Part shown: one piece after another, positions 3,785 to 52,644 of the stretch
How the letters are laid out: each line of letters begins with the position of its first letter
Position numbering within the stretch: the stretch's first letter is position 1
DNA from: Owenia fusiformis
Lineage: Eukaryota
DNA length: 64,000 bases
NCBI GenBank assembly: GCA_903813345.2
Contig: CAIIXF020000001.1
Span: 18,538,001 to 18,602,000, forward strand
Direction of reading: 5' to 3'
Notes under the pieces: model-generated
Database searches by the model: none
What the model was told of the DNA's origin: nothing
What the model saw: the letters and a program-made list of their open reading frames with translations, nothing else
Made by a program: the position numbers and the translations under genes

Positions 3785-3815
<31 letters not shown>

Positions 3816-6449: not shown

Positions 6450-6509
6450 TATTATGATGAGTAACATGCAACGTGAAAACATATCGCTACCATGATAAAG
6501 TGTCAATAC

Positions 6510-15300: not shown

Positions 15301-16974
15301 TTTCCTAGCTTTACAAATAATTTCAGGTGTCCTACATTGTAAAAATCCATGTCAATGTAAAGGGTAGATATATGAAATAATTTTGTTACAAAAAATCAGC
15401 AAAAAATTATATCCATTTTTTTATTTTCAGCCATTTTAGTTAACATTGATTTGTCTATCTGACTCGTGAAATCCACCTTCCGTCAATAACAGTGGCACAT
15501 TTTAAAACCTCTGTCCATAGGATTCCTGTTTTAAGTTATTTCTGTTCAACATCAATACAGAAAACTCCCCTATGACTCCTGGTTCAAAAGCTCGCCTATT
15601 TTCAAAATGGTCGCCATTCTTGTTTCGCGAAATTCACTTTTTGCCCATTTCCTAGCTTTACAAATGATTTCAGCTGTCCTGCATTGTAAAAAGCCATGTC
15701 ACTGTAAAGAGTAGTTGTATGAAATAATTTTATTACAAAAAATCGGCAAAATATTATATCTGTTTTTTTATTTTCAGCCATTTTAGTTAACATTGATTTG
15801 TCCATCTGTCTCGCGAAATCCTCTTTTGGACCATTTGCTTAAAACCTCTGTCGATAGGATTCCAGTTTCAAGTTATTTTTGTTCAACATCAATACAAAAA
15901 ACTCCCCTATGACTCCTGGTTCAAAAACTTGCCTGATTTCAAAAATGGTCGCCATTTTTGTCTCGCGAAATTCAATTTTGGCCCATTTCCTAGCTTTACA
16001 GATAATTTTAGGTGTCTTGCATTGCAAAAAGCCATGTCACTGTAAAGAGTAGTTCTATGAAATAATTTTGTTACAAATAATTGGCAAAAAATTATATCCG
16101 TTTTTTTTTCAGCCATTTTACTCAACATCTGTCTCTCAGTCAGTCCAAAATAGTGGCAAGTGGCTTGAAATAATTTTGTTACAAAAAATCAGCAAAAAAT
16201 TATATCCGTTTTTTTCTGTCACCATGTGAGCCCAGTACCCACGGTACAATTTTTGTGTTTCTTGTGATGTATATTTTTGTTGGTGTATGTTTGGAGGTGT
16301 ATGCATTTGGTATGTTCTTGGTTATGTGTGTTTTTTGTGATGTATTTATTTGTTAGTGTATGTTTGGAGGTGTATGCGTTTGGTATGTTCTTGGTTATGT
16401 GTGTTTTTGTGATGTATATATTTGTCGGTGTATGTTTGGAGGTGTATGCATTTGGTATGTCCTTGGTTATGTATGTATTTTGTGATGTATATATTTGTCG
16501 GTGTATGTTTGTAGGTGTATGCGTTTGGTGATTTATATGTTTCTTTGTTGTATGCATTTGGTTGAGTATGTTCTTGTTGTTTATGGACATAGAAATCTGT
16601 TCAAGAAGGTATTTCCAAAATGACTGTTGAATTCAAATGGCTGCATTATTTCATAAAGATTTTTTTTTTATCTTCATTATTTAATGTCCAAAATGACTAG
16701 GGATTTGATAAAATATGTTTTGTTTGGAGGAATTTGTTCCAGGAGTTGCTGTTAACATATTATTTGATTTGTTTTTCAGGTAAATATTAATGCCAATATT
16801 AGGAGAAAAATAGACTCAAATATACATGCTCCAACACTGAACATATTTGATGAAGCAAAAGCATGGATTGGACTGCTTATGGAGACAGACTCATTTCCAA
16901 GATTCATCAAATCAAATCTATTCAAAAGTTTTATATCAAGTCATTTTTCTGAAGATTCTAATAGCTCTAAATGA
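12356..16974 (+). CDS. Regulator of G-protein signalling (RGS domain) protein, last three coding exons
   Basis: Exons 12356-12417, 14020-14186 and 16780-16974 have AG/GT borders and compatible phases: PSKEEARAWGDSFEKLLDND-FGRDLFKKFLKSEYSEDNLLFWEAC...YISLTSPNE-VNINANIRRKI...FDEAKAWIGLLMETDSFPRFIKSNLF...stop. This is a canonical RGS box. AATAAA at ~17272. The 5' exon(s) were not located. Confidence 0.9.
13207..13643 (+). pseudogene. Tc1/mariner transposase C-terminal remnant with inverted duplication
   Basis: Frameshifted translation of ~13397-13630: W..PYSPDMAPSDSY, LKSELQGEFFKTEDDLK, WIKRHQ/CVEHNGKYIEHLN*. This matches the YSPDL motif and C-terminus of mariner-type transposases. 13207-13300 is an inverted copy of 13547-13643. 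Confidence 0.7.
14187..15036. repeat. GT-rich ~65-75-bp minisatellite in RGS intron (continues 16250-16580)
   Basis: Unit ~GGTATGTTCTTGGTTATGTGTGTTTTTGTGATGTATATTTGTTGGTGTATGTTTGGAGGTGTATGCGTTT; split by a HINE insertion. Confidence 0.9.
15039..16249 (+). mobile_element. HINE/DINE-1-like element, family A
   Basis: Same 5' hairpin, GTCY microsatellite, internal repeats, subTIR CACCATGTGAGC (16220-16231) and GTACC-CAC-GGTAC stem-loop as 3741-4828. Confidence 0.85.
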
Positions 16975-21990: not shown

Positions 21991-23114
21991 TAGTACCGTG
22001 GATACTGGGCTCACATGGCGTTGCTCAAAAGTGAATGATGCCTAAAATGGCCAAAAAAACTGGATGTCATTTTTGACGATTTATTGAAACAAAATTATTT
22101 CATACAATTACTCTTTAGAGTAACATGGCTTTTTACCATGCAGCTAGGAAATGGGCCACAAGTGCATTTCGCAAGACAAAAATGGCGACCATTTTGAAAT
22201 GCGAGCTTTTGGACCAGGAATCATAAAGGAGTTTTCTGTATTGATGTTGAACAAAAATAACTTAAAACAGGAATCCTATCGACAGAGGTTTTAAGGCAAA
22301 TGGTCCAAAAGTGGATTTCGTGAGCCATATGGACAAATCAATGTTAACTAAAATGGCTGAAAATAAAAAAACGGATATAAATTTTTGCTGATTTTTTGTA
22401 ACAAAATTATTTCATATTAACTACTCTTTGCAGTGACATGGGTTTTTACAATGCAGGACACCTGAATTTATTTGTAAAGCTAGGAAATTGGCCAAAAGTG
22501 AATTCTGTGAGACAAAAATGGCGACCATTTTGAAAATAGGCGAGTATTTGAACCAGGAGTCATAGAGGAATTTTCTACATTGATGTTGAACAAAAATAAC
22601 TTAAAACGGGAATCCTATTGACAGAGGTTAAGGTAAATGGTCCAAAAGTGGATTTCAAGAGATCGATGGACAAATCAATGTTAACTAAAATGGCTGAAAA
22701 TAAAAAAACGGATAAAATTTTTGGCCGATTTTTTGTAGCAAAATTATTTCATACAACTACTCTTTAAAGTGACATAGCTTTTTACAATGCAGGACACCTA
22801 AAATTATTTGTAAAGCTAGGAAATGGGCCAAATGTGAATTGCGCGAGACAAAAATGGCGAGCTTTTGAACCAGGAGTCATAAGGGAATTTTCTGTATTGA
22901 TGTTGAACAAATATAACTTAAAACGGGAATCCTTTCAACAAAGTTTTTAAAGCAAATTTGAAAATAGGCGATCTTTTGAACCAGGAGTCATAGGGGGGTT
23001 TTCTATATTGATGTTGAACAAAAATAAATTGACAGAGGTTTTAAAACTGGTCAATTGTTGACAGACAGACAGACGTACAAGTGAGTGATTGCAATAGCTC
23101 GCCATGTGAGCTAA
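21991..23114 (-). mobile_element. HINE/DINE-1-like element, family A (reverse)
   Basis: Reverse complement of the 3741/15039 family: AGTACCGTGGATACT, GCTCACATGGCG ... GACAGACAGAC ... AGCTCGCCATGTGAGCTAA. Confidence 0.85.
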
Positions 23115-28200: not shown

Positions 28201-31200
28201 CCAAAATAGCCACCTTGAAATTTACCCAGAATGCCAAAAAATTAGTGCGTTCAAGATTTTCATACTAAGAACCACCCCTGAAAATTTGAAATTGATCCCT
28301 CACACAGTTAACCAGAAAACATGTAAACAAGACTTTACAAACAAGATTTTAGGACAGAAAATCCAAAATGGCTGCCTTGACATTTATACAGAATTAGATC
28401 CAGAATCTAGATTTTCATACTAAGAATCATCCCTGAAAATTTGATATTGATCTACCAAACGGTTCACCTGGAAATGCGTAGACAAAACTTAACAGACAAG
28501 ACTTTAGGACAGAAAATCCAAAATGGCTGCCTTGACATTTACCCAGAATGCCCAAAAACTAATCAGATCTAGATTTTCATACTAAGAATCATCCCTGAAA
28601 ATTTGAAATTGATCTACCAAACAGTTCACCTGGAAATGCGTAAACAAGACTTTACAGACAAGATTTTAGGATGGAAAAATCCAAAATGGCCGACAATAAA
28701 AAAGTGAGTATGAGTTTTTGCTGATTTCTTTTTACAAAATTATCACATATAACTACAAGATTTTCATACTAAGAATCATCCCTGAAAATTTGATATTGAT
28801 CTACCAAACGGTTCACCTGGAAATGCGTAGACAAAACTTAACAGACAAGACTTTAGGACAGAAAATCCAAAATGGCTGCCTTGACATTTACCCAGAATGC
28901 CCAAAAACTAATCAGATCTAGATTTTCATACTAAGAATCATCCCTGAAAATTTGAAATTGATCTACCAAACAGTTCACCTGAAAACGCGTAGACAAGACT
29001 TTACAGACAAGATTTTAGGACGGAAAAATCCAAAATGGCCGACAATAAAAAAGTGAGTATGAGTTTTTGCTGATTTCTTTTTACAAAATTATCACATATA
29101 ACTACTGTTAACAATAACATAGGCTTTTACAACAAAGTACACCTGAAATTATCTATAAAGCTACTAAATAGTTAAAGTATGAAAACTCAAAAACACCATT
29201 CAATATGATACAAAGTATTATCGCGCGCTAACTTTTCTTAAAACATTCAAAATGGCTGACATGACTGAGCTGACAGGTCCAAAACCTAATCAGATGTAGA
29301 ATGAAGTGAGCTGAACAAGATGTTAAAGTTTCAAAAGCAAACGTGAAGGCATTTTTCTTAAAGTTTGCAGACAAGGATTTTAGCATTTGACTTCAAAATG
29401 GCCGATAGGAAGTAGGTATCAAGTTAAATTTTTTCATCTACATCTAGATGCACTCATAAGTTATCCCTGAAAATTTGAAGATGATATCTGTAGCGGTTTT
29501 GGAGAAAACTGCCGGACGTACGGACGGACAGACGGACATACGGACAGACAGACGCGCCTAGGCAGACAATATGGCCCCACACTATGTGGTGGGGACATAA
29601 AAAGAAGGAATTATTCAACGGCTTTGAGGAAAACTAAAACATTTTATTTTAATACCAGGCCTTATTAACTCAATATATTTGCCAGAAAACATTTAATGCA
29701 GATACAGTGTGTAGGTAGGGCCCTGACCAAGATGTGAATGTCTCACTTTATAACAGCCCTAGTGCAGAAATTCAACTTCATTCCAAGGGAGGTAACTGCT
29801 CCGACTGCTGCAACCATTTTCATGGGTTCATGGGTCTTTAGTTCTGGGATGTTGCCCCATACAAAATGAAGCAAGCCCCGCAAAATAAAAATTGTAAAAT
29901 AGCTTGGACACAGAGTACTGTACTGAATAGCTAATAAGTTGAAGGATATTATTATTAAGATTTGATATAATATTGAATTTGCTTCATCATATTTAATAAT
30001 AGCCATAAATTAATAATCTATTGTGAGGAATAACATATGATATAAAAACTATCAGTTGTGAAATTACCTTCTAATCTACAGAGATCTATGTGTTGTTTAT
30101 AGATCTTGGCAAAGGAAGCCTCCTCAAGTCCGCAACGTTGGAATTCTCCAATGACAGCTCGCAAAAATAACTTTTCCTGAAGTGAGGCGTTCCTAAAAAC
30201 AAAAAATATATTTACTCAAATAATAAATGAATTTCTTTCAAAGCCCAAGGGAAGAGTGGTGAGTGTATTATTGAGAAACTCTGGTACTGACCTAAATAAT
30301 CGATACCACAAAGTGATCAAGACAAAACAAGGCACAGGGTGAACAATATGGTACCTAAACATAGCAGTGTGGGCTTGATGAGATGGCCGCCAAAAAATCA
30401 GTTCTAGAATTTCTTACCACGTAACATATGTAAAAATTTGATGTAAATCCGTTAAGTGGTTTTCCTGGAATTGCAATGACAAGATTTATCTAAGAACTTC
30501 CAGAATGCAAGATGGCTGCCGAAAATTCAATCAGCTCTAGAACTTCTTACAATGTAACATGTGTCAAAATTTGAAGTACATCCATTGTGTGGTTTTCCTG
30601 GAATCGCGATGACAAGATTTATCTAAAAATTTCAAAGATAGCTGCCAGAATGCAAGATGTCCACCAAAATTTAATCAGCTCTAGAACTTCTTACCATGTA
30701 ACATGTGTAAAATTTGAAGTAAATCCGTCAAGTGGTGTTCCTGGAATCGCGATGACAAGATTTACCTAAAAACTTCCAAGATGGCCACCAGAATGCAAAA
30801 TGGGTACCGAAAATTGAATCAGCTCTAGAGCTTCTTACCATGTAACATAGGTGAAAATTTGATGTAAATCTGTTAAGTGGTTTTCCAGTAATCACAATGA
30901 AAAGATTTATCTAAAAACTTCCAAGATGGCCACCAGAATGCAAGATGGCCACCGAAAAGTTAATCAGCTCTAGAACTTCTTACCATGTAACATGTGTGAA
31001 AATTTGAAGTAAATCTGTCAAGCGGTTTTCCTGAAATTGTAATGACAACAAAGTGATATGCTGCCTGCCCATCAAGCTGACAACAAAATTGTACCTTTTT
31101 TAGGGATCCCTTAAAAAAAATAACAGAAGTAGGCTATATGCTTTGAAATTATTCCCCAGTCACCTAGACCCACCTCATGGCTACTATCTTGGGAGCAGAG

Positions 31201-34200: not shown

Positions 34201-37200
34201 TATCATATTATTCAAATTGGCCAGGGGTCATTAAGCATCCACAATTCACAAGGTTTTTCATGAAAGGCAAAATGTGAATGATTAAATGAATCCAGGTGTA
34301 TAAGGAACATAAATGATACATAAATATGAACATAAATACAAATATCATAAACATATAGATTAGTTAATAATGATACAAAGTTTCAATACAAAGTTTCAAA
34401 AATTGAACATACTTTTGGTGTTTTCTTGCCCATGTTTACAGTTTTCTTGCGTCCTTTGACAGATGTCCATTCTGGCTCAGAATCGCCACTCTCCTCCCCA
34501 CTGGAAGATATCTCAAATTTGTCCTCAGACTCTGCATCTGAACTCTCTACACAGGCAGACCTATTATGAATTTAGATATCGTAATATTCAAGCTTTATCA
34601 GTTGTATCAAATTTTTGCTAACTGAAAGCTAACATTTTATTACTCTTTTGGGGGTTTCAGAAGGTTTGTTTACTCCAGTTGAATATTCTATAAAAAATAT
34701 AACTATGTTCAAAACCCCAAAATAAAAGACAATGGGTAAATTCAGTTGTTTCTGTCTTTGTTTGTAATACCAGTTGAGAAAACATTTGAGTTTACTTTTC
34801 CTCTAAGTCGTCCTCATCCAAGATTTTTAACTGGGTCAAAAATTATCAATTGTGTGTGCAAGTTCTTACTTGGAGACAGATTTCCTTGCATGATGTTTAC
34901 TTTTCCTGCTGGGAGTTTTCTTTGCCTTGGCTTCTTTCTCCTCATCATCAGACGAGTCTTCTTTGTATTGAGGTACTGACTTTGCATCACCTCTACAAAA
35001 CATATCATCTATTTATTTTTTACTAGTATTTGGAACAACCTATGCCACTGTCTTAATAATTAACTGAAAGCAATGTGTCATCAGTATTTCGAAAGGACAT
35101 GGAACTTCACTGTTCATTCGCTTCAAACAAATTATTGTAAGAGTGGGGAATTTTTTTAATTACACCCAACAAACATTAAGTGTAGGATCTTGATCTTATT
35201 ATTTTATCAATGTAAATTTAATAAGAGTTAATATTTTCAATAAATTTGACATGTTCAAAATCTTCAAATATTAACATCTGAAAAGACTGATCTCATCAAG
35301 TATGGAAGAAAGTTTCAAAATGCATAAAAGTTCAAAGTCAATACTAAACTATAAAAAAAAACATTTTCACCAAATTTTGAATTTAGAAAACAGGTATGAA
35401 AATGATTGCAGAATGGAAAATATATTCAAAATTCACAATTATGACATTTTGAAGTTATTTTAGCCAGCCTAACAGCTCACAACTCATTTCTAGACTGAAT
35501 GCTGTTCCTTTAAAATATGAAATACTTACTTTCGACTTCTATTCCGTGTCAATTTGACCTTGTGACTGTTAATCACCTCTGAATCATATACAACTGGTGA
35601 TTTAGTGGAACTATCTCTGAGGTTGCTGACTAAACGTCGCGTCACAGAATTCAATGGTGTTTTACTAGCTGAGTGGCGTGTTGCCCGGGTAACTAGGGTT
35701 ACACCCTCAGTCTTTGGTGTTCGACCTGATTGCACTGTGGGGAGGTCTCTGATTGGTTTAACAGATGGTGTTTTGCGACTGCAAGATCTCACAGATGATG
35801 GTTTTGCTTTAGGTATGCTATCAGCCACTGGTGTTTTGGGAGTGTTCTTGCTTTGGTTTTTATTAACCTGTGTCGATTGTTCAGTTCTACGTTTCTTAGA
35901 ATCCAAAGATGAATCAGTGTTTGAAGAAGGAATGTTTGGAGTATTACGTTTAACACAGACTGATCGTCGACTTGATCTTCTAACTGAAGAATTATCTGAC
36001 GATACACTCACAGAGTCAATATCCTGTTTAGGTTGACACACTGAACGCCTAGATGATTTTCTAACAGAAGAACCCTCAGATGAGGTTACACTGATGCGAT
36101 CATCCTCCCCTTTATATACAGGTCCAGATATATCACTATAGCAAAGACTTTCAGATTCAGAGTCAGACATATTTGCTATTATATCAGTTCTATTCACATT
36201 CACCCATTTCGCAACAGATGTTGGGCTGAGCACAATATCTGAAATAATGGAGAGACATTTCTACTACATAAACAAACTCTGAATCTTTGAATGTTTAGTA
36301 TAATCATCAACATTTTTTCCAACTTGTTTAAAATTGAAGAATCTTGCTAAAAAATTCATGAAAAAGTACATTTTCTCAATGCAAAAAAATACAAATGACT
36401 TTTTCAGATTTATATTATTTGAAATTATAATTAATTAAAACCCACCTGTTTTGTCAGAGTTCTCTTTCCCAGACTGTTTGTTGTACTTATCTTTATTGAT
36501 GGGCTTTACATTGAGTTCATTAAATGCAAGAGATTTCCTTGTCCTTGTGTTAGATTTCACAGACTCCAATATCTTTGATTTCACAATCTTTGAATTTACA
36601 GACATCACTTTGGTATCTGTTCTTGCAATTGATTTATTTGCTTTGTCGGAGATTTGTCTCTTCGCTGGGAGAGTTTTTGCAAACTCCTCTTTTTTCTCAT
36701 TCATACTGAGTTTGGGTGTTTTTGGTGCGTCTTTGATCCATTGGTATGTTGATCCATCAAACCAGCGTTGAACAAAGAAAACAGGATTTCCATTCTCTGT
36801 CTTTAATGCCTCCTCTGGTGACATCCCATGTTGACATTCTATAACCTGTAAATATAAATATATTTAAGGCCCCATCTAAAGTTTAAACCACTAGATGTGA
36901 TAATGTAACACAATATTCTTAAATTTCACGTAGTTAGCTAGTAAATGCATGTAATAATACACGTTTCCATCAAATATGAAGAAAATCAGTGCTAGAATAG
37001 TATCTGAGTTACGCTTATGGATGGACAGACATATATTTTAGCAAAAAAATTGTGTATTCAAACTTTTTTAAGTTATAGGGATGGAAGCATTTTATTGAGG
37101 GAATTATTTTATTGATTTCCTGGTTAGGCTCAAACTATACAGAATGAAATTATTATTTTAATCTACTGACTACCCAGAATGACAAGATTCCTCGTCACCT

Positions 37201-39810: not shown

Positions 39811-40710
39811 GTAATAAATTCAATTTGATTTATAGGCCCAGTGGTCTTTATTTAGATCTATTTTGATTTTTGTTTATTTTTTCAACTTTTGAATTGAGGA
39901 CAGTGAAGTGTATGAATATGATACAGATCCGGAGCCAGATCCAGCCCCTATTGGTAGGATAAATGGGAAGATAAGCCACGAGCCAAAAATGCTACATCAA
40001 AAAAATGACCACCCAAAAATATGACCCTCGTACCATGGGCTTTCAATTAGAAGGGTATGCAACTCTGTGTAATAACATGAGACCATCAAAATGAACAGTG
40101 CCATGCTTCCCTTTTATGGTAATATTTCAAAAATTATTAGATAAATATATATGTTTTGGTATTATTTTGAATAAAAATCAATTTTCAATACGATTAGAGC
40201 ATAAAATATATTGTAACAAAATTTTGATTTTAAATTTTTTGATTTAAGTGCTTCACAGTTGAGATTATTAAGATCTTTGATTGTAGTATCGATTAAAGCA
40301 CTTTATTTGTACTTACAGAGGTGTTAGCAACTTTTTATTTTATCGAGTTCAGATTTGGTTAATGTTGATCGGGTAGTTTTACCAGTGACTATGGTTACGG
40401 TTGATCGAGAACTCTCGACTATCATTTTACAGAAATTATCACTTCCTGCTTTCAATTCGATCAAATCGAAGTGTAATTAGACTAGATAGCGATCATTTAT
40501 GGTTATATTTATTGAGTTTATACTATAATCTTGTTGATTATGTACCAAACATGTATTGATATTGGGTGTAAAAGCCGAGATCGTGATTTGTAAGTGAAGC
40601 CAGTTATTTTTACGAAACTAATATCCTGATTCAGTGATTACATCCGGTGACGAGGTATTGCATCAGCCCACTAATCACTTGTTAGGTTCGTGTGCAAAAC
40701 CTGTCTGGGG

Positions 40711-40745
40711 TATAAATACAGAGCCCGGATCGCTCCTATCAGACA
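40711..40745 (+). promoter_or_regulatory. putative LTR core promoter (TATA + Inr)
   Basis: TATAAATA at 40711-40718 and Inr-like TCAGAC at 40739-40744, with canonical spacing. Copy at 48454 in the 3' LTR. Confidence 0.6.
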
Positions 40746-40819
40746 CGTAGGCAACTTTTGATTGGAACACATCTCCCGTGCCAGTGTTTCATTTGAGGAT
40801 TGATGAGAAACTTAGAAGA

Positions 40820-42280
40820 TTTGCTGGATCGAGGAACTTTGTCATTTCCAGACATAGTTTAGAATATTCCAGCCTGTTTGAAGAAATACTGCTGGATCGA
40901 GGAACTTTGTCATTTCCAGACATAGTCTAGATAACTCCAGCCTGATTGAAGCAACTTTGCTGGATTGAGAAACTCTGTCATTTCCCGACATAGTTTATAC
41001 AATATTCCAGCCTGACTGAAGTAATACTGCTGAACCGAGAAACTTTGTCATTTCCAGGCAAAGTTTTAGAATATTTCAGCCCGATTGAAGAATTACCGCT
41101 GGACCGAGGAACTTTGTCAATTCCAGGCATAGTTTAGAATATTCCAGCCCGTTTGATGAAATACTGCTGAACCGAGAAACTTTGTCATTTCCAGGCAAAG
41201 TTTTAGAATATTTCAGCCCGATTGAAGAATTACTGCTGGACCGAGAAACTTTGTCATTACCAGACTTAGTTTACAGTATTCCAGCCTGATTGAGAAGGAG
41301 TGCTATAAACTTGTATTTTCAGGTGTTATTAAGTAACTTTTGTTTTTCTATTGTTAACTTGAGAAACTTTGCCATTTTTCGAAATCAATTGTTAACTTGA
41401 GAAACTTTGCCATTTTCGAGATCAAGAAACTTATTAAGCAATTAATGTTTTTCTATTGTTAACTTGAGAAACTTTGCCATTTTTGAGATCGAGAAACTTA
41501 CATTATTCTTTTCATAATTTAGCTAACTTGAGAAACTTAGCCATTTTTTTAGATCGATTATTTTTCATCAATTTGTTGACTGAAGAAATACTGCTGGACT
41601 GAGGAACTTTGCCATTTCCAGACAAAGTTCATAATATTAAAGCCTGATTGAAGAACTTTTCTGGATTGAGGAATATTCCAGCCTACTGAAGAAATACGGC
41701 TGGATTGAGGAACTTTGTCACTTCTAGGCATAGTTCATAATATTCCAGCCTGACGGAAGAAATACAGCTGGATTGAGAAACTCTGTCCTTTCCCGACATA
41801 GTTTATACAATATTCCAGCCTGACTGAAGAAATACTGCTTGACTGAGGAACTTTGCCATTTCCAGACAAAGTTCATAATATTCCAGTCTGACTGAAGAAA
41901 TACAGCTGGACTGAGAAACTCTGTCATTTCTCGACATAGTTGATACAACTCCAGCCTGTTTGAAGGACTCTGTTGGATTGAGGAATATTCCAGCCTGATT
42001 GAGGAAGTACAGCTGGATTGAGAAACTCTGTCCTTTCCCGACATAGTTTATACAATATTCCAGCCTGACTGAAGAAATACTGCTTGACTGAGGAACTTTG
42101 CCATTTCCAGACAAAGTTCATAATATTCCAGTCTGACTGAAGAAATACAGCTGATTGAGAAACTTGGTCACTTCCCGACATAGTTTATACAATATTCCAG
42201 CCTGATTGAGGAAATACAGCTGGACTGAGAAACTCTGTCATTTCCCGACATTGTTTATATAACTCAAGCCTGATTGAGAA
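40820..42280 (+). repeat. array of ~68-bp stem-loop units inside the LTR (copy at ~48563-50023)
   Basis: About 16 units GCTGGA-N5-RAACTYTGTC-ATTTCCM-GACAWAGTTY-N8/9-TCCAGC, interrupted by shorter TTGAGAAACTTTGCCATTTT repeats at ~41350-41570. Confidence 0.9.
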
Positions 42281-42360
42281 TAAGTACCAGAAACTTAGCT
42301 CATTTGGAGGAGCTGTTGAGGAACTTGGAATATTTTCACTCAACCTGAATGACATATTAT

Positions 42361-44180
42361 GGAAACTAAGTACGAGACACTTAGTTTATTTAGGAGCTAC
42401 TGGGAATCTTAGGCAGATTCCACATATTGAGGAACCTAGAGGATCTTCATCGCTGTTGCCTGTTGGGGAAGTTGAATAGTGTCACCCCCAACTTGGATGG
42501 CTTTGTTGGAAACTAAGTACGAGACACTTAGTTTATTTAGGAACTACTGGGAATCTTAGGCAGATTCCACATATTGAGGAACTTAAAGGATCTTCATCGA
42601 TTTAGAAGCTACTGGGAATCTTAGGCAGATTCCACATATTGAGGAACTTAAAGGATCTTCATCGATTTAGGAGCTACTGGGAATCTTAGGCAGATTCCAC
42701 ATATTGAAGAACTTAGAGGATCTTCATCGATTTAGGAGCTACTGGGAATCTTAGGCAGATTCCACATATTGAAGAACTTAGAGGATCTTCATCGATTTAG
42801 GAGCTACTGGGAATCTTAGGCAGATTCCACATATTGAAGAACTTAGAGGATCTTCATCGATTTAGGAGCTACTGGGAATCTTAGGCAGATTCCACATATT
42901 GAAGAACTTAGAGGATCTTCATCGATTTAGGAGCTACTGGGAATCTTAGGCAGATTCCACATATTGAGGAACCTAGAGGATCTTCATCGATTTAGGAGCT
43001 ACTGGGAATCTTAGGCAGATTCCACATATTGAAGAACTTAGAGGATCTTCATCGATTTAGGAGCTACTGGGAATCTTAGGCAGATTCCACATATTGAAGA
43101 ACTTAGAGGATCTTCATCGATTTAGGAGCTACTGGGAATCTTAGGCAGATTCCACATATTGAAGAACTTAGAGGATCTTCATCGATTTAGGAGCTACTGG
43201 GAATCTTAGGCAGATTCCACATATTGAAGAACTTAGAGGATCTTCATCGATTTAGGAGCTACTGGGAATCTTAGGCAGATTCCACATATTGAAGAACTTA
43301 GAGGATCTTCATCGATTTAGGAGCTACTGGGAATCTTAGGCAGATTCCACATATTGAAGAACTTAGAGGATCTTCATCGATTTAGGAGCTACTGGGAATC
43401 TTAGGCAGATTCCACATATTGAAGAACTTAGAGGATCTTCATCGATTTAGGAGCTACTGGGAATCTTAGGCAGATTCCACATATTGAAGAACTTAGAGGA
43501 TCTTCATCGATTTAGGAGCTACTGGGAATCTTAGGCAGATTCCACATATTGAAGAACTTAGAGGATCTTCATCGATTTAGGAGCTACTGGGAATCTTAGG
43601 CAGATTCCACATATTGAAGAACTTAGAGGATCTTCATCGATTTAGGAGCTACTGGGAATCTTAGGCAGATTCCACATATTGAGGAACTTAGAGGATCTTC
43701 ATCGATGTTGCCTGTTGGGGATGTTGAATAGTGTCACCCCCGACCTGGATGACTTTGTTGGAAACTAAGTACGAGACACTTAGTTTATTTAGGAACTACT
43801 GGGAATCTTAGGCAGATTCCACATATTGAGGAACTTAAAGGATCTTCATCGATTTAGGAGCTACTGGGAATCTTAGGCAGATTCCACATATTGAGGAACT
43901 TAGAGGATCTTCATCGATTTAGGAGCTACTGGGAATCTTAGGCAGATTCCACATATTGAGGAACTTAGAGGATCTTCATCGATTTAGGAGCTACTGGGAA
44001 TCTTCGGCAGATTCCACATATTGAGGAACTTAAAGGATCTTCATCGATGTTGCCTGTTGGGGACGTTGAATAGTGTCACCCCCGACCTGGATGACTTTGA
44101 TGGAAACTAAGTACGAGACACTTAGTTTATTTGGGAACTACTGGGAATCTTGGGTAGATTCCACATATTGAGGAACTTTG
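42361..44180 (+). repeat. 65-bp tandem array inside the LTR (copy at ~50104-51923)
   Basis: Unit TTAGGAGCTACTGGGAATCTTAGGCAGATTCCACATATTGARGAACTTAGAGGATCTTCATCGAT in blocks of 1 + 18 + 4 + a partial unit, separated by three copies of an ~82-bp module. Confidence 0.95.
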
Positions 44181-44686
44181 GCATTTCCAGACTTAGTTTA
44201 TATAACTCCAGCCTGATTGAGGAACTAAGTTGATTCCAGACTTAGTTATTTTATTTCAGGCCAGCTTGAGATTTGCCTCCATTGAGAGACTGTTATTCCA
44301 AGGCATAATCACTGAAGCTGTAATGAGAGACTGTTATTCCCAGATTTATACCTAGCTGAATTGAATAAGTCCAGAGCTCAAGAGACAATTGAAAGTACAA
44401 GTATTTTCGTATAGAGGACTCTAATATTAGTGCTTCGAAAACTATCATCGCATATAAAGGACTTTAACCTTAGTGCCTCAGTAACTGAAGTAAAGCAAAT
44501 ACATCGATTTTCATGTATTATTTTGACGGGCTAAAACGCCACAATATATGTGTTATTGTATTTAATTGTATATAAGTTGTTATGTACAGATTTCCCACGT
44601 GTATATTTAACGTATACCCTGAGACCCACAGTGACACAGTCTATTAAACAACATCCACACTACCATAATTAGGCTGAATGTTACAC

Positions 44687-44704
44687 TGGTGGCAGTGGTG
44701 GGAT
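44687..44704 (+). other. primer-binding site complementary to tRNA-Leu 3' end
   Basis: TGGTGGCAGTGGTGGGAT, 1 nt after the LTR end. It is the reverse complement of ATCCCACCACTGCCACCA, as recalled for metazoan tRNA-Leu (TAG/AAG). Confidence 0.85.
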
Positions 44705-44742
44705 AACGTGTGAAATCTTATATTGCATATTATACGCCTGAA

Positions 44743-47649
44743 ATGGAGCAAGATTCCAATTTGCCACCTCCTCCGGATGTAGAGGGTGTAGGAGATGGTG
44801 ACCTTGAAAAAAACGTGTTTTTCAAGAACGACGCAATGGAAATTGACAATCCAGGAGCAGCTGATGCAACTGTACAGGAAATGAGGGATACTGATACACA
44901 GAGTGATACTTTGGGAAATGTCACTCATTCGGAAGGAGCTAGACCCAAAACTCCAGAAACAGATGTTGAGAAGAGTGGATTACCCAGCTCATGGAGTACA
45001 GGGTATTGGACCGGAGGTGTAATGATAGATGCCAAAACTCCCTTTGAACCGAGTAATCAGAATGTCGGCAATCCTCCCCGAAGACCGAGATTTCCTTTAA
45101 CCTCTACTGCCCTAGGCAGGCCGGCAAGGAGTTTAAGAGAGGAGGACACACTGAGAAAAGATCTCACTATGGTTGAAAGCAAATTTGAGCAAAAGATGGA
45201 TATTTTTAGTGAGACTTTAGTTGCTCAACAACGACAGATGCAGAAAATAGCAGAGACCCAACAGAAATGTATGACTCAAGTTGTGGAAACCCAAAAGAAG
45301 TTGGTCATAGGACTAACAGAGTCTCAAAACACTCAAATACACAACATCAATCAAATTGCAGAACAAGTTCGTACTGGTCAGGATCATCAGGAGGCACAAT
45401 TACAGGGCATGAAGGGTCAGATGGAAAATTTCCAAAACGCCATGGAGAAATCAATCATCAACCAAATTCAGAGTAACATGCCTGTTGAGTTTCGTACTAC
45501 TCCAGGTAAGTCACAGACACTGGGGGATGTTAGTGGTCATTGTAGGTCTGAGACCAGAATTCAGAAGCCTGCAATATCGGTTAGAAGAGATCCTAACCAA
45601 ACAGAACGGATGCAACCCATCAGTATGTCTAGAGCCAGTTCCACTTCAGGTGTGAAAAGGCCCTGGAGGTTGCTTCGGCAAGACCGGTTTTGCCAGAGAC
45701 CTGATGCAGAACTGCCGCCAGATAATGCAGCAGATTATGATCACCAACCTAAAGATAGAGGGTTAGGTCCGATAGACTGGCTGGAGAGGGGACATGGTGG
45801 TGACATCCCGACTCATCACTTACCTCAGTATCAAGAAGAACTTGATGATGTCCCGGAGGATATATCGATGAAGGAAACTTCGAGTCCAAAGCGCCATAAC
45901 ACTATAGAAAGGCCTGAGAAGATGGAGAACGTTAATGATTCTCATCTCTCAACAGAGCTTATTAAGATGTGCTCTCAGTTGTGTGCTAAACTCTCCAAAG
46001 AGACTCCTGGAACTTCTAGCAAGAGCAGAATCAAACCTGATGTGTATAACGGGAATACACCATGGCAAGACTATAGGGCTTATTTTGAGATCTGCGGGGA
46101 AGCTAATAAATGGTCTGAGGAAGATAAGAGGCAGTTTCTAGCCACCAGTCTTCGAGGCCCTGCCCAGCAAATGGTATTAGAGATGGGACAAGATTATACC
46201 TATGATCAGCTCCTTTTAGCCCTAGAGAAGCGATTCGGTCCTGGTGGAAAGGCCGAGGTCTACGAGGCCGAGCTAGTTGGGCGAATCCGAAAGCCCAAAG
46301 AGACTCTACAGACATTGGGCCAGGATATAAGACGTCTCACCGCTTTGGCCTATCCAGAAATGAGCCGTGCGGCCCAAGATCGTCTGGCTAGACGGAGTTT
46401 TGAGCAGGCCATTTTAGAGGAGGAGATCAGGAGGGCTATCCATGCCAAGGAGTGTAATACTCTCGATAAGGCCATCGAAGTTGCGCTTAAAGAAGAGTCC
46501 TATATAGAATCAGAACGAATAAGGAAAGGCCAAAAACCAAAGTTAAGAGTATACGCCATTGATACCGAGGAAGAGTACTGCAACTCTATAAGTACTCCTG
46601 ATAATAAGGAAGATGTGTTTCAGAAGATGGCTCAAATGGTCAAACAAATGCAACAAGCTGTGCAAGAAACGTGCACCAGGAACTTGGAGAAAATGGTTGA
46701 CCTGATAAAGTTAACCAAATCGGATTCTACAAATAGTGTGAATATGAACATTAAACCAAAATGTTTCTATTGTCACAAACCTGGACACCGGATCGCTGAT
46801 TGTTATTCAAGGAAGCGTGCCGAAGAGCGAGATAAAGCAGCACAAGAGAGATCTAGCCAGATTGCTACCGTTGAATTTCTATCTCTGCAGGGAAATGGTG
46901 TTCAGTCTTCCAAGGACACTCAGAAGATAGTGGCACATGGCATAGTTTGCGACACCAATGTTTCATTTTTAGTTGACTCTGGAGCCGCTAGCACAATCAT
47001 GAGTTCAACGGTCTACCAGAATATACCTAAACGCAAAAGGCCCCAGCTTAAGCCACCTAAGAAGACCATTTTGCAAGCAGGTGGGCAACTCTTGCATATG
47101 GAGGGTGTTATACCAGTTAGCTTGAAAATTGACGGGCATGTACAGAACTTGGAGGTGGTCGTGGCTGATATTCACTTTGAGGGAATTTTGGGCACAGACT
47201 TCCTAGCTGCCTCTGGAGCTGTATTGAACTATCGTGAGTGTAAAATGACTTTTGAACCAGAGAATCCGGGAAGTTTTGATGATCACCAAGTAGACTCAGG
47301 AATGCCTAAAGATGGAGAGAGTGAAGTAAAACACAGACAGGGAGGTCGACGTGAAAAATTAAGGCTGAGAAACAGATCACCACAACCCAAGAGGACAGCT
47401 GCAGATCGAACTGATTTTTCCCGCTTCAGAGGGCAGAGGCGTGACATGGACAAGAGATTTTGTAAAGTGTCTGGACAAAGTGAAGACTTCTACCATAGAA
47501 TTCCTAGTCAGGATGATGACAAGAGAACGTCTCCAGTTAAAGTGCCTCTAGCCAAAGTTTACAGAGGGAGATATTTGAGGACTCACCCTGGACGTGACAT
47601 ATATGATGATTGGAGGGATCGTTGTTATTCCCCTACAGTGAAGCCCTAA
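44743..47649 (+). CDS. retrotransposon Gag-aspartic protease polyprotein (no RT/RNase H/integrase)
   Basis: Intact ORF (track 44710-47649 from GTG; first ATG 44743). Coiled-coil-like N-region; capsid-like KPDVYNGNTPWQDYRAYFE...WSEEDKRQFLATSLRGPA; CCHC knuckle CFYCHKPGHRIADC (46762-46803); protease FLVDSGA...GILGTDFL; then a basic tail and stop ~300 bp before the 3' LTR. Confidence 0.92.
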   Translation: MEQDSNLPPPPDVEGVGDGDLEKNVFFKNDAMEIDNPGAADATVQEMRDTDTQSDTLGNVTHSEGARPKTPETDVEKSGLPSSWSTGYWTGGVMIDAKTPFEPSNQNVGNPPRRPRFPLTSTALGRPARSLREEDTLRKDLTMVESKFEQKMDIFSETLVAQQRQMQKIAETQQKCMTQVVETQKKLVIGLTESQNTQIHNINQIAEQVRTGQDHQEAQLQGMKGQMENFQNAMEKSIINQIQSNMPVEFRTTPGKSQTLGDVSGHCRSETRIQKPAISVRRDPNQTERMQPISMSRASSTSGVKRPWRLLRQDRFCQRPDAELPPDNAADYDHQPKDRGLGPIDWLERGHGGDIPTHHLPQYQEELDDVPEDISMKETSSPKRHNTIERPEKMENVNDSHLSTELIKMCSQLCAKLSKETPGTSSKSRIKPDVYNGNTPWQDYRAYFEICGEANKWSEEDKRQFLATSLRGPAQQMVLEMGQDYTYDQLLLALEKRFGPGGKAEVYEAELVGRIRKPKETLQTLGQDIRRLTALAYPEMSRAAQDRLARRSFEQAILEEEIRRAIHAKECNTLDKAIEVALKEESYIESERIRKGQKPKLRVYAIDTEEEYCNSISTPDNKEDVFQKMAQMVKQMQQAVQETCTRNLEKMVDLIKLTKSDSTNSVNMNIKPKCFYCHKPGHRIADCYSRKRAEERDKAAQERSSQIATVEFLSLQGNGVQSSKDTQKIVAHGIVCDTNVSFLVDSGAASTIMSSTVYQNIPKRKRPQLKPPKKTILQAGGQLLHMEGVIPVSLKIDGHVQNLEVVVADIHFEGILGTDFLAASGAVLNYRECKMTFEPENPGSFDDHQVDSGMPKDGESEVKHRQGGRREKLRLRNRSPQPKRTAADRTDFSRFRGQRRDMDKRFCKVSGQSEDFYHRIPSQDDDKRTSPVKVPLAKVYRGRYLRTHPGRDIYDDWRDRCYSPTVKP

Positions 47650-47942
47650 CTTGAGAGTTGACATTTAGCATGAGTATAATTTTATATTCATACCTAACAT
47701 TTAGCTGAGAGTTGTGAAAAGTTATTAATGTACACAGAGTTAGACATTCAAATAGTTAGATATCTAGTGTTAGGGTTTGAGATAAGCCAGAGTTTAGAAT
47801 ATTCATTGTACATTGTATTGAAAGCTAGTTAACCTCGAGGTTAGAAAATTGTAAGATTGTATTTTGTAGGATAGCTAAGATAGCAAAATTTTGTTATTTT
47901 TTTATTGTACTTTGGCTTGGTGTTGTTAACACCAAAATCATT

Positions 47943-47954
47943 GGATTGGAGGAG
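47943..47954 (+). other. polypurine tract (putative)
   Basis: GGATTGGAGGAG directly abutting the TGTAACA start of the 3' LTR. Confidence 0.6.
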
Positions 47955-50900
47955 TGTAACAAAATTTTGATTTTAAATTTTTTGATTTAAGTGCTTCACA
48001 GTTGAGATTATTAAGATCTTTGATTGTAGTATCGATTAAAGCACTTTATTTGTACTTACAGAGGTGTTAGCAACTTTTTATTTTATCGAGTTCAGATTTG
48101 GTTAATGTTGATCGGGTAGTTTTACCAGTGACTATGGTTACGGTTGATCGAGAACTCTCGACTATCATTTTACAGAAATTATCACTTCCTGCTTTCAATT
48201 CGATCAAATCGAAGTGTAATTAGACTAGATAGCGATCATTTATGGTTATATTTATTGAGTTTATACTATAATCTTGTTGATTATGTACCAAACATGTATT
48301 GATATTGGGTGTAAAAGCCGAGATCGTGATTTGTAAGTGAAGCCAGTTATTTTTACGAAACTAATATCCTGATTCAGTGATTACATCCGGTGACGAGGTA
48401 TTGCATCAGCCCACTAATCACTTGTTAGGTTCGTGTGCAAAACCTGTCTGGGGTATAAATACAGAGCCCGGATCGCTCCTATCAGACACGTAGGCAACTT
48501 TTGATTGGAACACATCTCCCGTGCCAGTGTTTCATTTGAGGATTGATGAGAAACTTAGAAGATTTGCTGGATCGAGGAACTTTGTCATTTCCAGACATAG
48601 TTTAGAATATTCCAGCCTGTTTGAAGAAATACTGCTGGATCGAGGAACTTTGTCATTTCCAGACATAGTCTAGATAACTCCAGCCTGATTGAAGCAACTT
48701 TGCTGGATTGAGAAACTCTGTCATTTCCCGACATAGTTTATACAATATTCCAGCCTGACTGAAGTAATACTGCTGAACCGAGAAACTTTGTCATTTCCAG
48801 GCAAAGTTTTAGAATATTTCAGCCCGATTGAAGAATTACCGCTGGACCGAGGAACTTTGTCAATTCCAGGCATAGTTTAGAATATTCCAGCCCGTTTGAT
48901 GAAATACTGCTGAACCGAGAAACTTTGTCATTTCCAGGCAAAGTTTTAGAATATTTCAGCCCGATTGAAGAATTACTGCTGGACCGAGAAACTTTGTCAT
49001 TACCAGACTTAGTTTACAGTATTCCAGCCTGATTGAGAAGGAGTGCTATAAACTTGTATTTTCAGGTGTTATTAAGTAACTTTTGTTTTTCTATTGTTAA
49101 CTTGAGAAACTTTGCCATTTTTCGAAATCAATTGTTAACTTGAGAAACTTTGCCATTTTCGAGATCAAGAAACTTATTAAGCAATTAATGTTTTTCTATT
49201 GTTAACTTGAGAAACTTTGCCATTTTTGAGATCGAGAAACTTACATTATTCTTTTCATAATTTAGCTAACTTGAGAAACTTAGCCATTTTTTTAGATCGA
49301 TTATTTTTCATCAATTTGTTGACTGAAGAAATACTGCTGGACTGAGGAACTTTGCCATTTCCAGACAAAGTTCATAATATTAAAGCCTGATTGAAGAACT
49401 TTTCTGGATTGAGGAATATTCCAGCCTACTGAAGAAATACGGCTGGATTGAGGAACTTTGTCACTTCTAGGCATAGTTCATAATATTCCAGCCTGACGGA
49501 AGAAATACAGCTGGATTGAGAAACTCTGTCCTTTCCCGACATAGTTTATACAATATTCCAGCCTGACTGAAGAAATACTGCTTGACTGAGGAACTTTGCC
49601 ATTTCCAGACAAAGTTCATAATATTCCAGTCTGACTGAAGAAATACAGCTGGACTGAGAAACTCTGTCATTTCTCGACATAGTTGATACAACTCCAGCCT
49701 GTTTGAAGGACTCTGTTGGATTGAGGAATATTCCAGCCTGATTGAGGAAGTACAGCTGGATTGAGAAACTCTGTCCTTTCCCGACATAGTTTATACAATA
49801 TTCCAGCCTGACTGAAGAAATACTGCTTGACTGAGGAACTTTGCCATTTCCAGACAAAGTTCATAATATTCCAGTCTGACTGAAGAAATACAGCTGATTG
49901 AGAAACTTGGTCACTTCCCGACATAGTTTATACAATATTCCAGCCTGATTGAGGAAATACAGCTGGACTGAGAAACTCTGTCATTTCCCGACATTGTTTA
50001 TATAACTCAAGCCTGATTGAGAATAAGTACCAGAAACTTAGCTCATTTGGAGGAGCTGTTGAGGAACTTGGAATATTTTCACTCAACCTGAATGACATAT
50101 TATGGAAACTAAGTACGAGACACTTAGTTTATTTAGGAGCTACTGGGAATCTTAGGCAGATTCCACATATTGAGGAACCTAGAGGATCTTCATCGCTGTT
50201 GCCTGTTGGGGAAGTTGAATAGTGTCACCCCCAACTTGGATGGCTTTGTTGGAAACTAAGTACGAGACACTTAGTTTATTTAGGAACTACTGGGAATCTT
50301 AGGCAGATTCCACATATTGAGGAACTTAAAGGATCTTCATCGATTTAGAAGCTACTGGGAATCTTAGGCAGATTCCACATATTGAGGAACTTAAAGGATC
50401 TTCATCGATTTAGGAGCTACTGGGAATCTTAGGCAGATTCCACATATTGAAGAACTTAGAGGATCTTCATCGATTTAGGAGCTACTGGGAATCTTAGGCA
50501 GATTCCACATATTGAAGAACTTAGAGGATCTTCATCGATTTAGGAGCTACTGGGAATCTTAGGCAGATTCCACATATTGAAGAACTTAGAGGATCTTCAT
50601 CGATTTAGGAGCTACTGGGAATCTTAGGCAGATTCCACATATTGAAGAACTTAGAGGATCTTCATCGATTTAGGAGCTACTGGGAATCTTAGGCAGATTC
50701 CACATATTGAGGAACCTAGAGGATCTTCATCGATTTAGGAGCTACTGGGAATCTTAGGCAGATTCCACATATTGAAGAACTTAGAGGATCTTCATCGATT
50801 TAGGAGCTACTGGGAATCTTAGGCAGATTCCACATATTGAAGAACTTAGAGGATCTTCATCGATTTAGGAGCTACTGGGAATCTTAGGCAGATTCCACAT

Positions 50901-52428
50901 ATTGAAGAACTTAGAGGATCTTCATCGATTTAGGAGCTACTGGGAATCTTAGGCAGATTCCACATATTGAAGAACTTAGAGGATCTTCATCGATTTAGGA
51001 GCTACTGGGAATCTTAGGCAGATTCCACATATTGAAGAACTTAGAGGATCTTCATCGATTTAGGAGCTACTGGGAATCTTAGGCAGATTCCACATATTGA
51101 AGAACTTAGAGGATCTTCATCGATTTAGGAGCTACTGGGAATCTTAGGCAGATTCCACATATTGAAGAACTTAGAGGATCTTCATCGATTTAGGAGCTAC
51201 TGGGAATCTTAGGCAGATTCCACATATTGAAGAACTTAGAGGATCTTCATCGATTTAGGAGCTACTGGGAATCTTAGGCAGATTCCACATATTGAAGAAC
51301 TTAGAGGATCTTCATCGATTTAGGAGCTACTGGGAATCTTAGGCAGATTCCACATATTGAAGAACTTAGAGGATCTTCATCGATTTAGGAGCTACTGGGA
51401 ATCTTAGGCAGATTCCACATATTGAGGAACTTAGAGGATCTTCATCGATGTTGCCTGTTGGGGATGTTGAATAGTGTCACCCCCGACCTGGATGACTTTG
51501 TTGGAAACTAAGTACGAGACACTTAGTTTATTTAGGAACTACTGGGAATCTTAGGCAGATTCCACATATTGAGGAACTTAAAGGATCTTCATCGATTTAG
51601 GAGCTACTGGGAATCTTAGGCAGATTCCACATATTGAGGAACTTAGAGGATCTTCATCGATTTAGGAGCTACTGGGAATCTTAGGCAGATTCCACATATT
51701 GAGGAACTTAGAGGATCTTCATCGATTTAGGAGCTACTGGGAATCTTCGGCAGATTCCACATATTGAGGAACTTAAAGGATCTTCATCGATGTTGCCTGT
51801 TGGGGACGTTGAATAGTGTCACCCCCGACCTGGATGACTTTGATGGAAACTAAGTACGAGACACTTAGTTTATTTGGGAACTACTGGGAATCTTGGGTAG
51901 ATTCCACATATTGAGGAACTTTGGCATTTCCAGACTTAGTTTATATAACTCCAGCCTGATTGAGGAACTAAGTTGATTCCAGACTTAGTTATTTTATTTC
52001 AGGCCAGCTTGAGATTTGCCTCCATTGAGAGACTGTTATTCCAAGGCATAATCACTGAAGCTGTAATGAGAGACTGTTATTCCCAGATTTATACCTAGCT
52101 GAATTGAATAAGTCCAGAGCTCAAGAGACAATTGAAAGTACAAGTATTTTCGTATAGAGGACTCTAATATTAGTGCTTCGAAAACTATCATCGCATATAA
52201 AGGACTTTAACCTTAGTGCCTCAGTAACTGAAGTAAAGCAAATACATCGATTTTCATGTATTATTTTGACGGGCTAAAACGCCACAATATATGTGTTATT
52301 GTATTTAATTGTATATAAGTTGTTATGTACAGATTTCCCACGTGTATATTTAACGTATACCCTGAGACCCACAGTGACACAGTCTATTAAACAACATCCA
52401 CACTACCATAATTAGGCTGAATGTTACA
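47955..52428 (+). repeat. 3' LTR (4474 bp)
   Basis: No difference from the 5' LTR at the positions checked, including array copy numbers and variant units. Confidence 0.95.
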
Positions 52429-52644
52429 ATATGGAGTGGCTCCAGGACCGACAATTGTCGGTACTGGAGACTGTCCAAGGGTATTTGCTGGGGTACCGAC
52501 AATTGTCGGCACTCTATCGTCACATAGTAGTGCCAGATAGAGAACCGACAATTGTCGGTACGCAAGTGGCTGCTACGTGTTTTTGCTAGAGAGCCGACAA
52601 TTTCATAAATAAATCCACTACTTTTACTTTCAGATATAACCTCA

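Follow-up and report, generated by a model that had tools for sequence, protein, structure and literature searches.

Plant genomes hold non-autonomous families of long terminal repeat (LTR) retrotransposons that keep only GAG and PROT (PMC13570524). The TR-GAG elements, as defined by Chaparro et al. 2015 (PMC4350172), are at most 4 kb long and have similarity to Gag without aspartic protease, integrase (IN), reverse transcriptase (RT) or ribonuclease H (RNase H, RH), and tandem repeats inside plant LTR retrotransposons are reported to seed satellites (PMC7004042). This report concerns an element at positions 40212-52428 of a 64-kb stretch of the annelid Owenia fusiformis (GCA_903813345.2, contig CAIIXF020000001.1:18,538,001-18,602,000, + strand; hereafter the window, to which all coordinates refer). 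The element has two identical LTRs and a single open reading frame (ORF) for Gag and protease (PR), and probably belongs, as a recent insertion, to a multi-copy non-autonomous ("semi-autonomous") Ty3/gypsy-derived LTR family in an animal genome. The GAG/PROT-only plant families are its closest published analogue; no Gag-and-protease-only LTR family in animals was found described in the open-access literature searched.

Structure and age of the insertion

The frame of the element consists of the following features.

40208-40211: left target-site duplication, 4 bp, ATAT, the same as 52429-52432
40212-44685, + strand: 5' LTR, 4474 bp, with termini TGTAACA...TGTTACA
44686-47954: interior, 3269 bp
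44687-44704, + strand: primer-binding site of 18 nt that starts with TGG, 1 nt past the 5' LTR
47943-47954, + strand: polypurine tract GGATTGGAGGAG, adjoining the 3' LTR
47955-52428, + strand: 3' LTR, in which every sub-feature of the 5' LTR is repeated at +7743
52429-52432: right target-site duplication, ATAT, directly flanking the 3' LTR

Base-by-base comparison at an offset of 7743 bases found the LTR pair to agree in 4474 of 4474 positions and to diverge first at 44686; the two LTRs make up 8948 bases (73%) of the 12217-bp whole. Thus the locus has every part by which an LTR retrotransposon is structurally defined: direct repeats, TG..CA ends, a short duplication, a primer-binding site and a polypurine tract. 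An earlier reading of the window made from its letters alone (hereafter the sequence-only reading) had claimed two 4474-bp LTRs amounting to 73% of the element, a 4-bp target-site duplication, the two priming sites and recent mobility, all of which hold at the coordinates given above. It had also ascribed the primer-binding site to tRNA-Leu, a putative identity that goes by resemblance; no tRNA genes were found in the 64-kb window. Identical LTRs together with a target duplication indicate recent transposition, and the insertion is very recent.

Perfect identity over 4474 bases, including arrays of 23 copies, also resembles the product of collapsed or copied repeats, and the 4.47-kb duplication or the equality of the arrays could in principle have been made by the assembler or by polishing. 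Against this, the target duplication, the primer-binding site and the polypurine tract lie exactly at the repeat boundaries, short-read contigs of other sequencing runs and RNA reads (see below) cover both bins that contain an LTR-interior junction, and identical LTRs are expected in young LTR elements. An assembly artefact is accordingly regarded as very improbable.

A polyprotein of capsid, zinc knuckle and protease

The interior encodes one protein, whose parts are as follows.

44743-47649, + strand: sole ORF, 968 amino acids (aa), a Gag-CCHC-protease polyprotein
45142-45468, + strand: helix of the N-terminal extension, residues 134-242, predicted to be a coiled-coil-like helix of ~110 residues (AlphaFold2, block-mean pLDDT 72-87)
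46030-46527, + strand: capsid domain, residues ~430-595 (pLDDT 87.7 when the domain is folded alone)
46759-46803, + strand: CCHC zinc knuckle, residues 673-687 (weak match to Pfam zf-CCHC, E 0.035)
46930-47256, + strand: retropepsin domain, residues ~730-838, with a DSG active-site motif and a GILGTDFL motif in the translation
47257-47649, + strand: C-terminal tail, basic, mostly disordered and without a pol match

The ORF is intact, fills 2907 of the 3269 interior bases and is the only ATG-started ORF of at least 150 aa in 40000-52600, which agrees with the single intact Gag-CCHC-protease ORF of ~970 aa that had been proposed from the letters. Its full-length AlphaFold2 model, built on 34 sequences, is confident over residues 430-595 and 730-838; the N-terminal extension of 420 aa is predicted to be disordered apart from the helix at residues 134-242, as is the tail past residue 886. 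In the representative library, the sole match to residues 1-238 is one 239-aa protein of Owenia fusiformis itself (38% identity), and the N-terminal 420 residues gave no Atlas lead and no relative among proteins of 532-1694 aa, the size class searched.

The capsid and protease assignments, put forward in the sequence-only reading, are borne out by fold as well as by profile. The top Foldseek matches to the modelled capsid domain are retroelement capsids only; the ten best-ranked chains include PNMA2 (E 4.8e-5 and 6e-4), dArc1, murine leukaemia virus (MLV) and Arc, followed by the Ty3 and Copia capsids at ranks 11-12, and on this model and these matches the domain has the all-helical fold of a retroelement capsid; the match of the ORF to the PNMA-capsid Pfam family is weak. 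Residues C674, C677, H682 and C687 of the zinc knuckle are nearly invariant across the relatives in alignment A1. Pfam detects a gag-type aspartic protease (PF13975) at residues 737-822 (E 1.5e-7), the profile search reaches solved chains of retroviral-like aspartic protease 1 (7e-16), and the protease model superposes in Foldseek on retropepsins such as the equine infectious anaemia virus (EIAV) protease (E 4.9e-7, target TM 0.84), and also on DDI1/2. With a D-S/T-G motif and the corresponding fold, the domain is a retropepsin (peptidase A2), and from its translation and model it is apparently intact.

Absence of pol and lineage of the core

No RT, RNase H or integrase was found in any of the six frames of all 64 kb by tblastn at E<=1, as the sequence-only reading had maintained for the element. 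The queries, four Gag-Pol relatives, are distant (27-35% identity in the core), and their matches are limited to 46003-47289, the capsid-to-protease stretch. None of these four proteins matches the 665 bases that separate the protease from the 3' LTR, where a short, poorly conserved remnant of pol, such as the C-terminus of integrase, may remain undetected.

The representative library contains 6582 relatives of the ORF at E<=1e-3, the best of which are 35-48% identical over a match confined to residues ~420-840; the named relatives are echinoderm proteins (Lytechinus, Patiria, Strongylocentrotus). Three library proteins (P0012, P0005 and P0016) share the capsid-to-protease core and continue in the same ORF into RT-RH(-IN), P0012 being a protein of 1991 aa with the RVT_1, RNase H and integrase Pfam families. 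A metagenome scan with the single protein yielded 0 relatives among 26 pattern matches, and a scan with a tighter alignment (A2) yielded 7 distant loci, in four of which (L001, L002, L004 and L006) a single frame leads from the protease into RT-RH(-IN); L001 seems to form a ~7.3-kb unit with a short overlap at its termini. Identity in the core is 29-33% to P0012 and P0005, and 27-37% to the metagenome loci.

Ty3/gypsy elements are recognized by RT phylogeny and by the order PR-RT-RH-IN, and as RT, RH and IN are without match here, classification by RT is impossible. The assignment is made solely from a Gag-PR core homologous to that of PR-RT-RH-IN elements: because the autonomous relatives of the core go on from protease to RT-RH(-IN) without leaving the frame, the Gag-PR protein appears to belong to a Ty3/gypsy-type lineage.

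A quick tree of 38 rows and 417 columns was built after 19 rows had been dropped (14 near-identical cluster members and 5 with cut proteases). The ORF falls, on a long branch (1.51), into a clade of 16 rows with 99% support (10 RT-less, 3 RT-bearing, 3 undecided), and is closest there to P0006 and the RT-less P0001-3 family (only 82% support). At least three changes of the RT-less label are needed to fit the well-supported branches, and loss of pol looks recurrent across the tree, to judge from these sequences.

Variants of the element in other sequencing runs

Reads and contigs of other runs were mapped to the array-free stretch 44179-48564 (4386 bases). Part of this stretch is contained in 20 runs from 7 studies, all under one species label, with no RNA run among the holders listed by the run search; the mapped runs were two RNA runs (X21 and X22) and two contig runs, X3 ("DNA?") and X1 ("RNA?"), whose kinds are guessed and in which contig depth is not copy number. 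In X3, 363 contig pieces were mapped, of which 185 are at least 99% like the window, 110 are in the 95-99% class and 68 in the 90-95% class; the 161 pieces of X1 fall into the same classes as 70, 48 and 43. Up to 8 distinct contigs lie over one position, far beyond the two alleles of a single locus.

The region that bears most directly on the loss of pol, from the end of the protease through the tail to the stop codon, is present in both contig runs (47237-47689 in X3, 47237-47564 in X1), in each case with a single difference from the window, shared by the two. Its depths (301 in X3, 43.8 in X1) stand beside those of gag pieces (350-609 in X3, 42-54 in X1), and LTR pieces are about twice as deep as the interior (642-961 in X3, 105-150 in X1), as they should be if this interior lies between most of the LTRs.

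The layout could nevertheless be a one-off, an autonomous element having lost pol or a single defective cDNA having integrated at this locus, with no propagation afterwards. The window holds no second copy of the element (E<=1e-5, element masked), and in the autonomous relatives a single ORF spans protease and RT, so that an internal deletion is the obvious origin of the arrangement. The sequence-only reading had itself raised such a deletion, and the contigs of the other runs do not bear it out: the protease-to-stop region recurs in two of them at gag-like depths, many interior variants occur within single runs, the ORF variants are rich in synonymous changes and free of stops (below), and no remnant of pol is found in any frame at E<=1. 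Many interior variants that include the protease-to-stop region in other runs indicate more than a private deletion; a one-off event is decidedly improbable, and a multi-copy, propagating pol-less family is most likely.

Among the best-supported 33 of 130 ORF variants, 14 are synonymous, 19 are non-synonymous and 0 introduce a stop, where 21% synonymous would be expected at random (binomial p 0.005); those in the capsid-knuckle part, within the same 33, number 5 synonymous versus 2 non-synonymous. The excess is a crude sign that purifying selection may act on the protein. An intact ORF under apparent purifying selection might also belong to a host-co-opted Gag-protease gene of the PEG10 kind, still lying between LTRs, and RT-less Gag-PR proteins do recur in invertebrates, for example as four members of a sea-urchin cluster with tails of exactly 357 aa. 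Identical LTRs with a target duplication denote recent transposition, however, and many variants per run denote a multi-copy family in place of a single locus; co-option is extremely improbable.

RNA runs X21 and X22 contributed 265 and 180 mapped reads, whose first mate is almost always on the - strand, and the RNA is apparently sense to the ORF, as it would be in most stranded libraries. Reads of X21 cover 30 of 30 bins, and parts of the LTR reach a depth of 6-42x. At the LTR end at 44685, 11 reads of X21 and 6 of X22 cross into a flank unlike that of the window, which points to a copy at another locus.

If the element is a member of a propagating pol-less family, its cycle may be outlined as follows. 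RNA from an LTR promoter would be translated into Gag-PR, the protease would process Gag, and particles would assemble preferentially on the RNA of the element itself. RT-RH-IN would come in trans from an autonomous relative with a Gag-Pol able to co-assemble. The primer-binding site and the polypurine tract would prime reverse transcription, and integration at an AT-rich site would make the 4-bp duplication. The present 4.5 kb of each LTR may have arisen as 65- and 68-bp units were tandemly amplified, and the units would be copied along in each cycle.

Several observations weigh against this account. Both mobilisation in trans and self-packaging are steps that we infer. The synonymous excess is crude, coming from the best-supported 33 of 130 variants only, and 16 of 527 contig pieces are listed, from which neither the copy number nor the pol-less share can be derived. 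The depth of RNA in the interior is 0.1-5x, from ~6% of X21, and is zero over 44767-46383 in X22. Most RNA reads are 95-99% like the window and not identical to it, and all four runs differ from the base of the window at several LTR sites, for example at 44279 in 35 of 35 reads of X21. Thus the copy in the window is not the majority variant, and the RNA stems from the family, with no demonstrated contribution of this copy. An autonomous partner that shares these LTRs or this primer-binding site did not turn up, the whole genome not having been searched.

Some details of the mapped reads and contigs are recorded in their own right. The foreign flank past 44685 also starts with ATAT, a preferred target or a coincidence. 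A 41-bp segment at 44283-44323 (52026-52066) is tandemly duplicated in 7 reads of X21 and 1 of X22, which is copy-number variation of a short LTR-tail repeat among family members. Loose ends before 47660 (2 contigs of X3) and 47697 (11 and 6 RNA reads) were considered as joints to a different, possibly pol-bearing interior and rejected, because they have motifs in common with the 3' untranslated region (UTR) of the window itself and look like indel-rich variants. Joints recorded as "goes back 4383" and loose ends at 44182 are explained by a fragment of the 68-bp unit at 44170-44226.

Tandem arrays and transcription of the LTRs

Each LTR contains three stretches of tandem array, given here for the 5' LTR.

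40822-41301, + strand: block 1 of the 68-bp family, 7 units (Tandem Repeats Finder, TRF, and unit mapping)
41592-42285, + strand: blocks 2-3 of the 68-bp family, 9 units, with higher-order periods of 137 and 245 bp
42405-44178, + strand: 65-bp array, 23 copies by TRF, with 12 consecutive identical units and a ~82-bp spacer that recurs three times

Units in register cover ~2.9 kb, and the span from the first to the last (40822-44226) is 3.4 kb; the two non-array ends of the LTR are unrelated to each other. A hybrid unit at 44128-44226 passes from the first ~50 nt of a 65-bp unit into a unit of 68-bp type at the shared 9-mer GAGGAACTT, which suggests that recombination at this 9-mer links the two arrays.

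The sequence-only reading had described the arrays as ~3.4 kb of hairpin-bearing repeats per LTR and as a structured non-coding RNA cargo. The span is correct, and the hairpins amount to short inverted repeats in the units, with stems of 7 bp and 6 bp. Under the cargo hypothesis the arrays would function as multimerised packaging signals, small-RNA precursors or decoys of a Gag-PR parasite. Z-scores of RNA folds lie between -1.4 and -3.2 for single and double units, the 68-bp unit being the best (z -3.2; 1 of 200 shuffles as good), while the 65-bp unit gives a sense-strand z of only -1.4 and varies too little between copies to allow a covariation test. A consensus fold of 16 diverged 68-bp units has 14 pairs, in which 95.6% of cells are paired; shuffles give 94.5%, and 54 of 500 are as high, so that sequence conservation accounts for the pairing. 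The covariation score is 0.111 versus 0.085 in shuffles (reached in 26 of 500; 0.102 at a slide of -2), and two pairs are changed on both sides, as happens in 164 of 500 shuffles; the units are duplicated in blocks, so the double changes are few events. Rfam has 0 matches at E<=1 on either strand of 40100-48000. RNA reads with sequence of the 68-bp unit occur, apparently sense (46 and 37 loose ends at 44182), and a promoter-like site upstream of all arrays (below) would allow the arrays to be part of an LTR-initiated RNA. However, genomic RNA necessarily includes whatever lies in the LTR, and transcription of the arrays is therefore no evidence of function. The window is moreover rich in unrelated arrays, which makes array growth a habit of this genome. 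A structured RNA cargo is thus not supported, and we consider it unlikely; most likely the arrays are satellite-like expansions within the LTR, or perhaps repeated cis-regulatory or protein-binding sites.

Two candidate core-promoter-like sites are present in the LTR.

40711-40743, + strand: site 1, TATAAATA with TCAGA ~30 bp downstream, upstream of all arrays
44453-44482, + strand: site 2, TATAAAG with TCAGT ~27 bp downstream, ~205 bp before the LTR end

On the + strand of the whole window, TATAAA-N18-26-TCAG[A/T] is confined to 40711, 44453 and the copies of these in the 3' LTR. Of 2000 composition-shuffled LTRs, 7 contain it at least twice, a frequency to be read with the pattern having been defined after the sites were seen. 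Transcription starting near 40741 would place all arrays in a transcribed R region or leader. If it began near 44480, the layout would be a conventional one in which the arrays belong to U3 and ATTAAA at 44643 is the poly(A) signal (AATAAA is absent from the LTR); alternatively, the hexamer of site 2 could itself serve as a poly(A) signal. The RNA depth of X21 steps from ~29 to 7 at ~44472, which fits neither start simply, the arrays lying outside the mapped stretch.

A more ambitious combination of these observations with the tree would make the window element, P0006 and P0001-3 an old, self-sustaining RT-less "satellite" retroelement lineage, living beside helper gypsy elements in marine invertebrates and not arising by repeated deletions, with the TATA box and initiator ~500 bp into the LTR driving a multi-kilobase RNA of 65/68-bp hairpin units as a multimerised packaging or small-RNA-generating module. 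The idea of such a lineage draws on gene models that may be truncated, and the combination as a whole is quite unlikely.

Other features of the window

Unrelated arrays of 32-, 75-, 145- and ~340-bp units occur in the window. The 32-bp satellite-like array, on the + strand, comprises three blocks (6500-8501 with 61 copies, 10073-10302 and 10546-11174). A ~340-bp tandem repeat family is found three times and in both orientations (3814-4786 and 15132-16215, + strand; 22034-23065, - strand), with short related pieces at 28683-29169, and is possibly the cargo of another mobile element. One of its blocks is flanked by a GT-rich 75/147-bp array (14184-15036 and 16254-16530) with strong GC and AT skew.

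What looks to be a host exon is an open frame for an RGS (regulator of G-protein signalling) domain at 13821-14237 (+ strand, Pfam E 2.5e-13); its 3' end overlaps the start of the 75-bp array at 14184. Besides the ORF of the element, just one stop-to-stop frame in the window reaches 200 aa (35526-36260, - strand, 244 aa), and it has no Pfam match at E<=0.01.

Significance and relation to known elements

If the family is as active as the identical LTRs suggest, it would be an animal counterpart of the plant GAG/PROT-only non-autonomous elements and a natural system for learning how a pol-less element with its own capsid and protease obtains the RT and integrase of a helper, in which one could ask whether capsid compatibility limits the partnership. 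The element also illustrates a route by which 65-68-bp tandem arrays can be spread genome-wide inside LTRs, which bears on the origin of satellites. Current understanding is not overturned, and the main value of the element is as a clean, very young example.

The sequence-only reading had proposed an undescribed system, a claim at odds with the GAG/PROT-only plant families (PMC13570524) and with RT-less Gag-PR relatives in sea urchins and other assemblies. With those plant families the element shares the LTR frame, the retention of Gag and protease as the only domains, the loss of RT, RNase H and integrase, presumed mobilisation in trans and a size above the TR-GAG limit; it differs in its animal host, its array-rich 4.5-kb LTRs and its 420-aa N-terminal extension of Gag. 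TR-GAG elements (PMC4350172) are alike in the non-autonomous LTR frame, the single ORF for a structural protein, the signs of recent activity and the presence of a primer-binding site and a polypurine tract. The present element departs from two of the defining properties, with 12217 bp and a clear retropepsin; the definition also asks for at least two genomic copies, and here many variant contigs were found in other runs, their depth not being copy number. The element is not a large retrotransposon derivative (LARD), which has a large non-coding interior, as one intact ORF takes up 2907 of its 3269 interior bases.

Autonomous elements of Ty3/gypsy type from marine invertebrates (P0012, P0005 and P0016; L001, L002, L004 and L006) have a homologous capsid-knuckle-protease core and differ in that the protease continues into RT-RH(-IN) in the same ORF. 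Of 56 relatives in which capsid and protease were both present, several end in a tail of 250-412 aa without an RT match, among them the P0001-P0003 family (a cluster of 26) and the sea-urchin P0004 family (10 proteins, 4 of them with tails of exactly 357 aa). P0013 and the metagenome locus L007 are likewise RT-less. All these resemble the present protein in having the core followed by a non-RT tail, but are only 35-40% identical to it, have tails and N-termini that do not align with it, and are known from gene models that are perhaps truncated. In L007 (1049-3151) a related protease is followed by ~450 aa of K/E-rich, coiled-coil-like sequence in place of RT, and the Gag part upstream lies in two separate frames.

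Host genes domesticated from Ty3/gypsy Gag(-PR), such as PEG10, occur as single copies and have no LTRs. The element is like them in having Gag and a retropepsin without RT or integrase, and its capsid fold is like those of PNMA2 and Arc; it differs in being mobile and multi-variant, not a single-copy gene, with identical LTRs and a target duplication.

The plant LTR retrotransposons reported to seed satellites (PMC7004042) likewise carry short tandem arrays; in the present element the arrays are inside the LTR itself and form about two thirds of it. Thus the element is best read as an animal variant, not previously described in the literature searched, of a layout known from plants.

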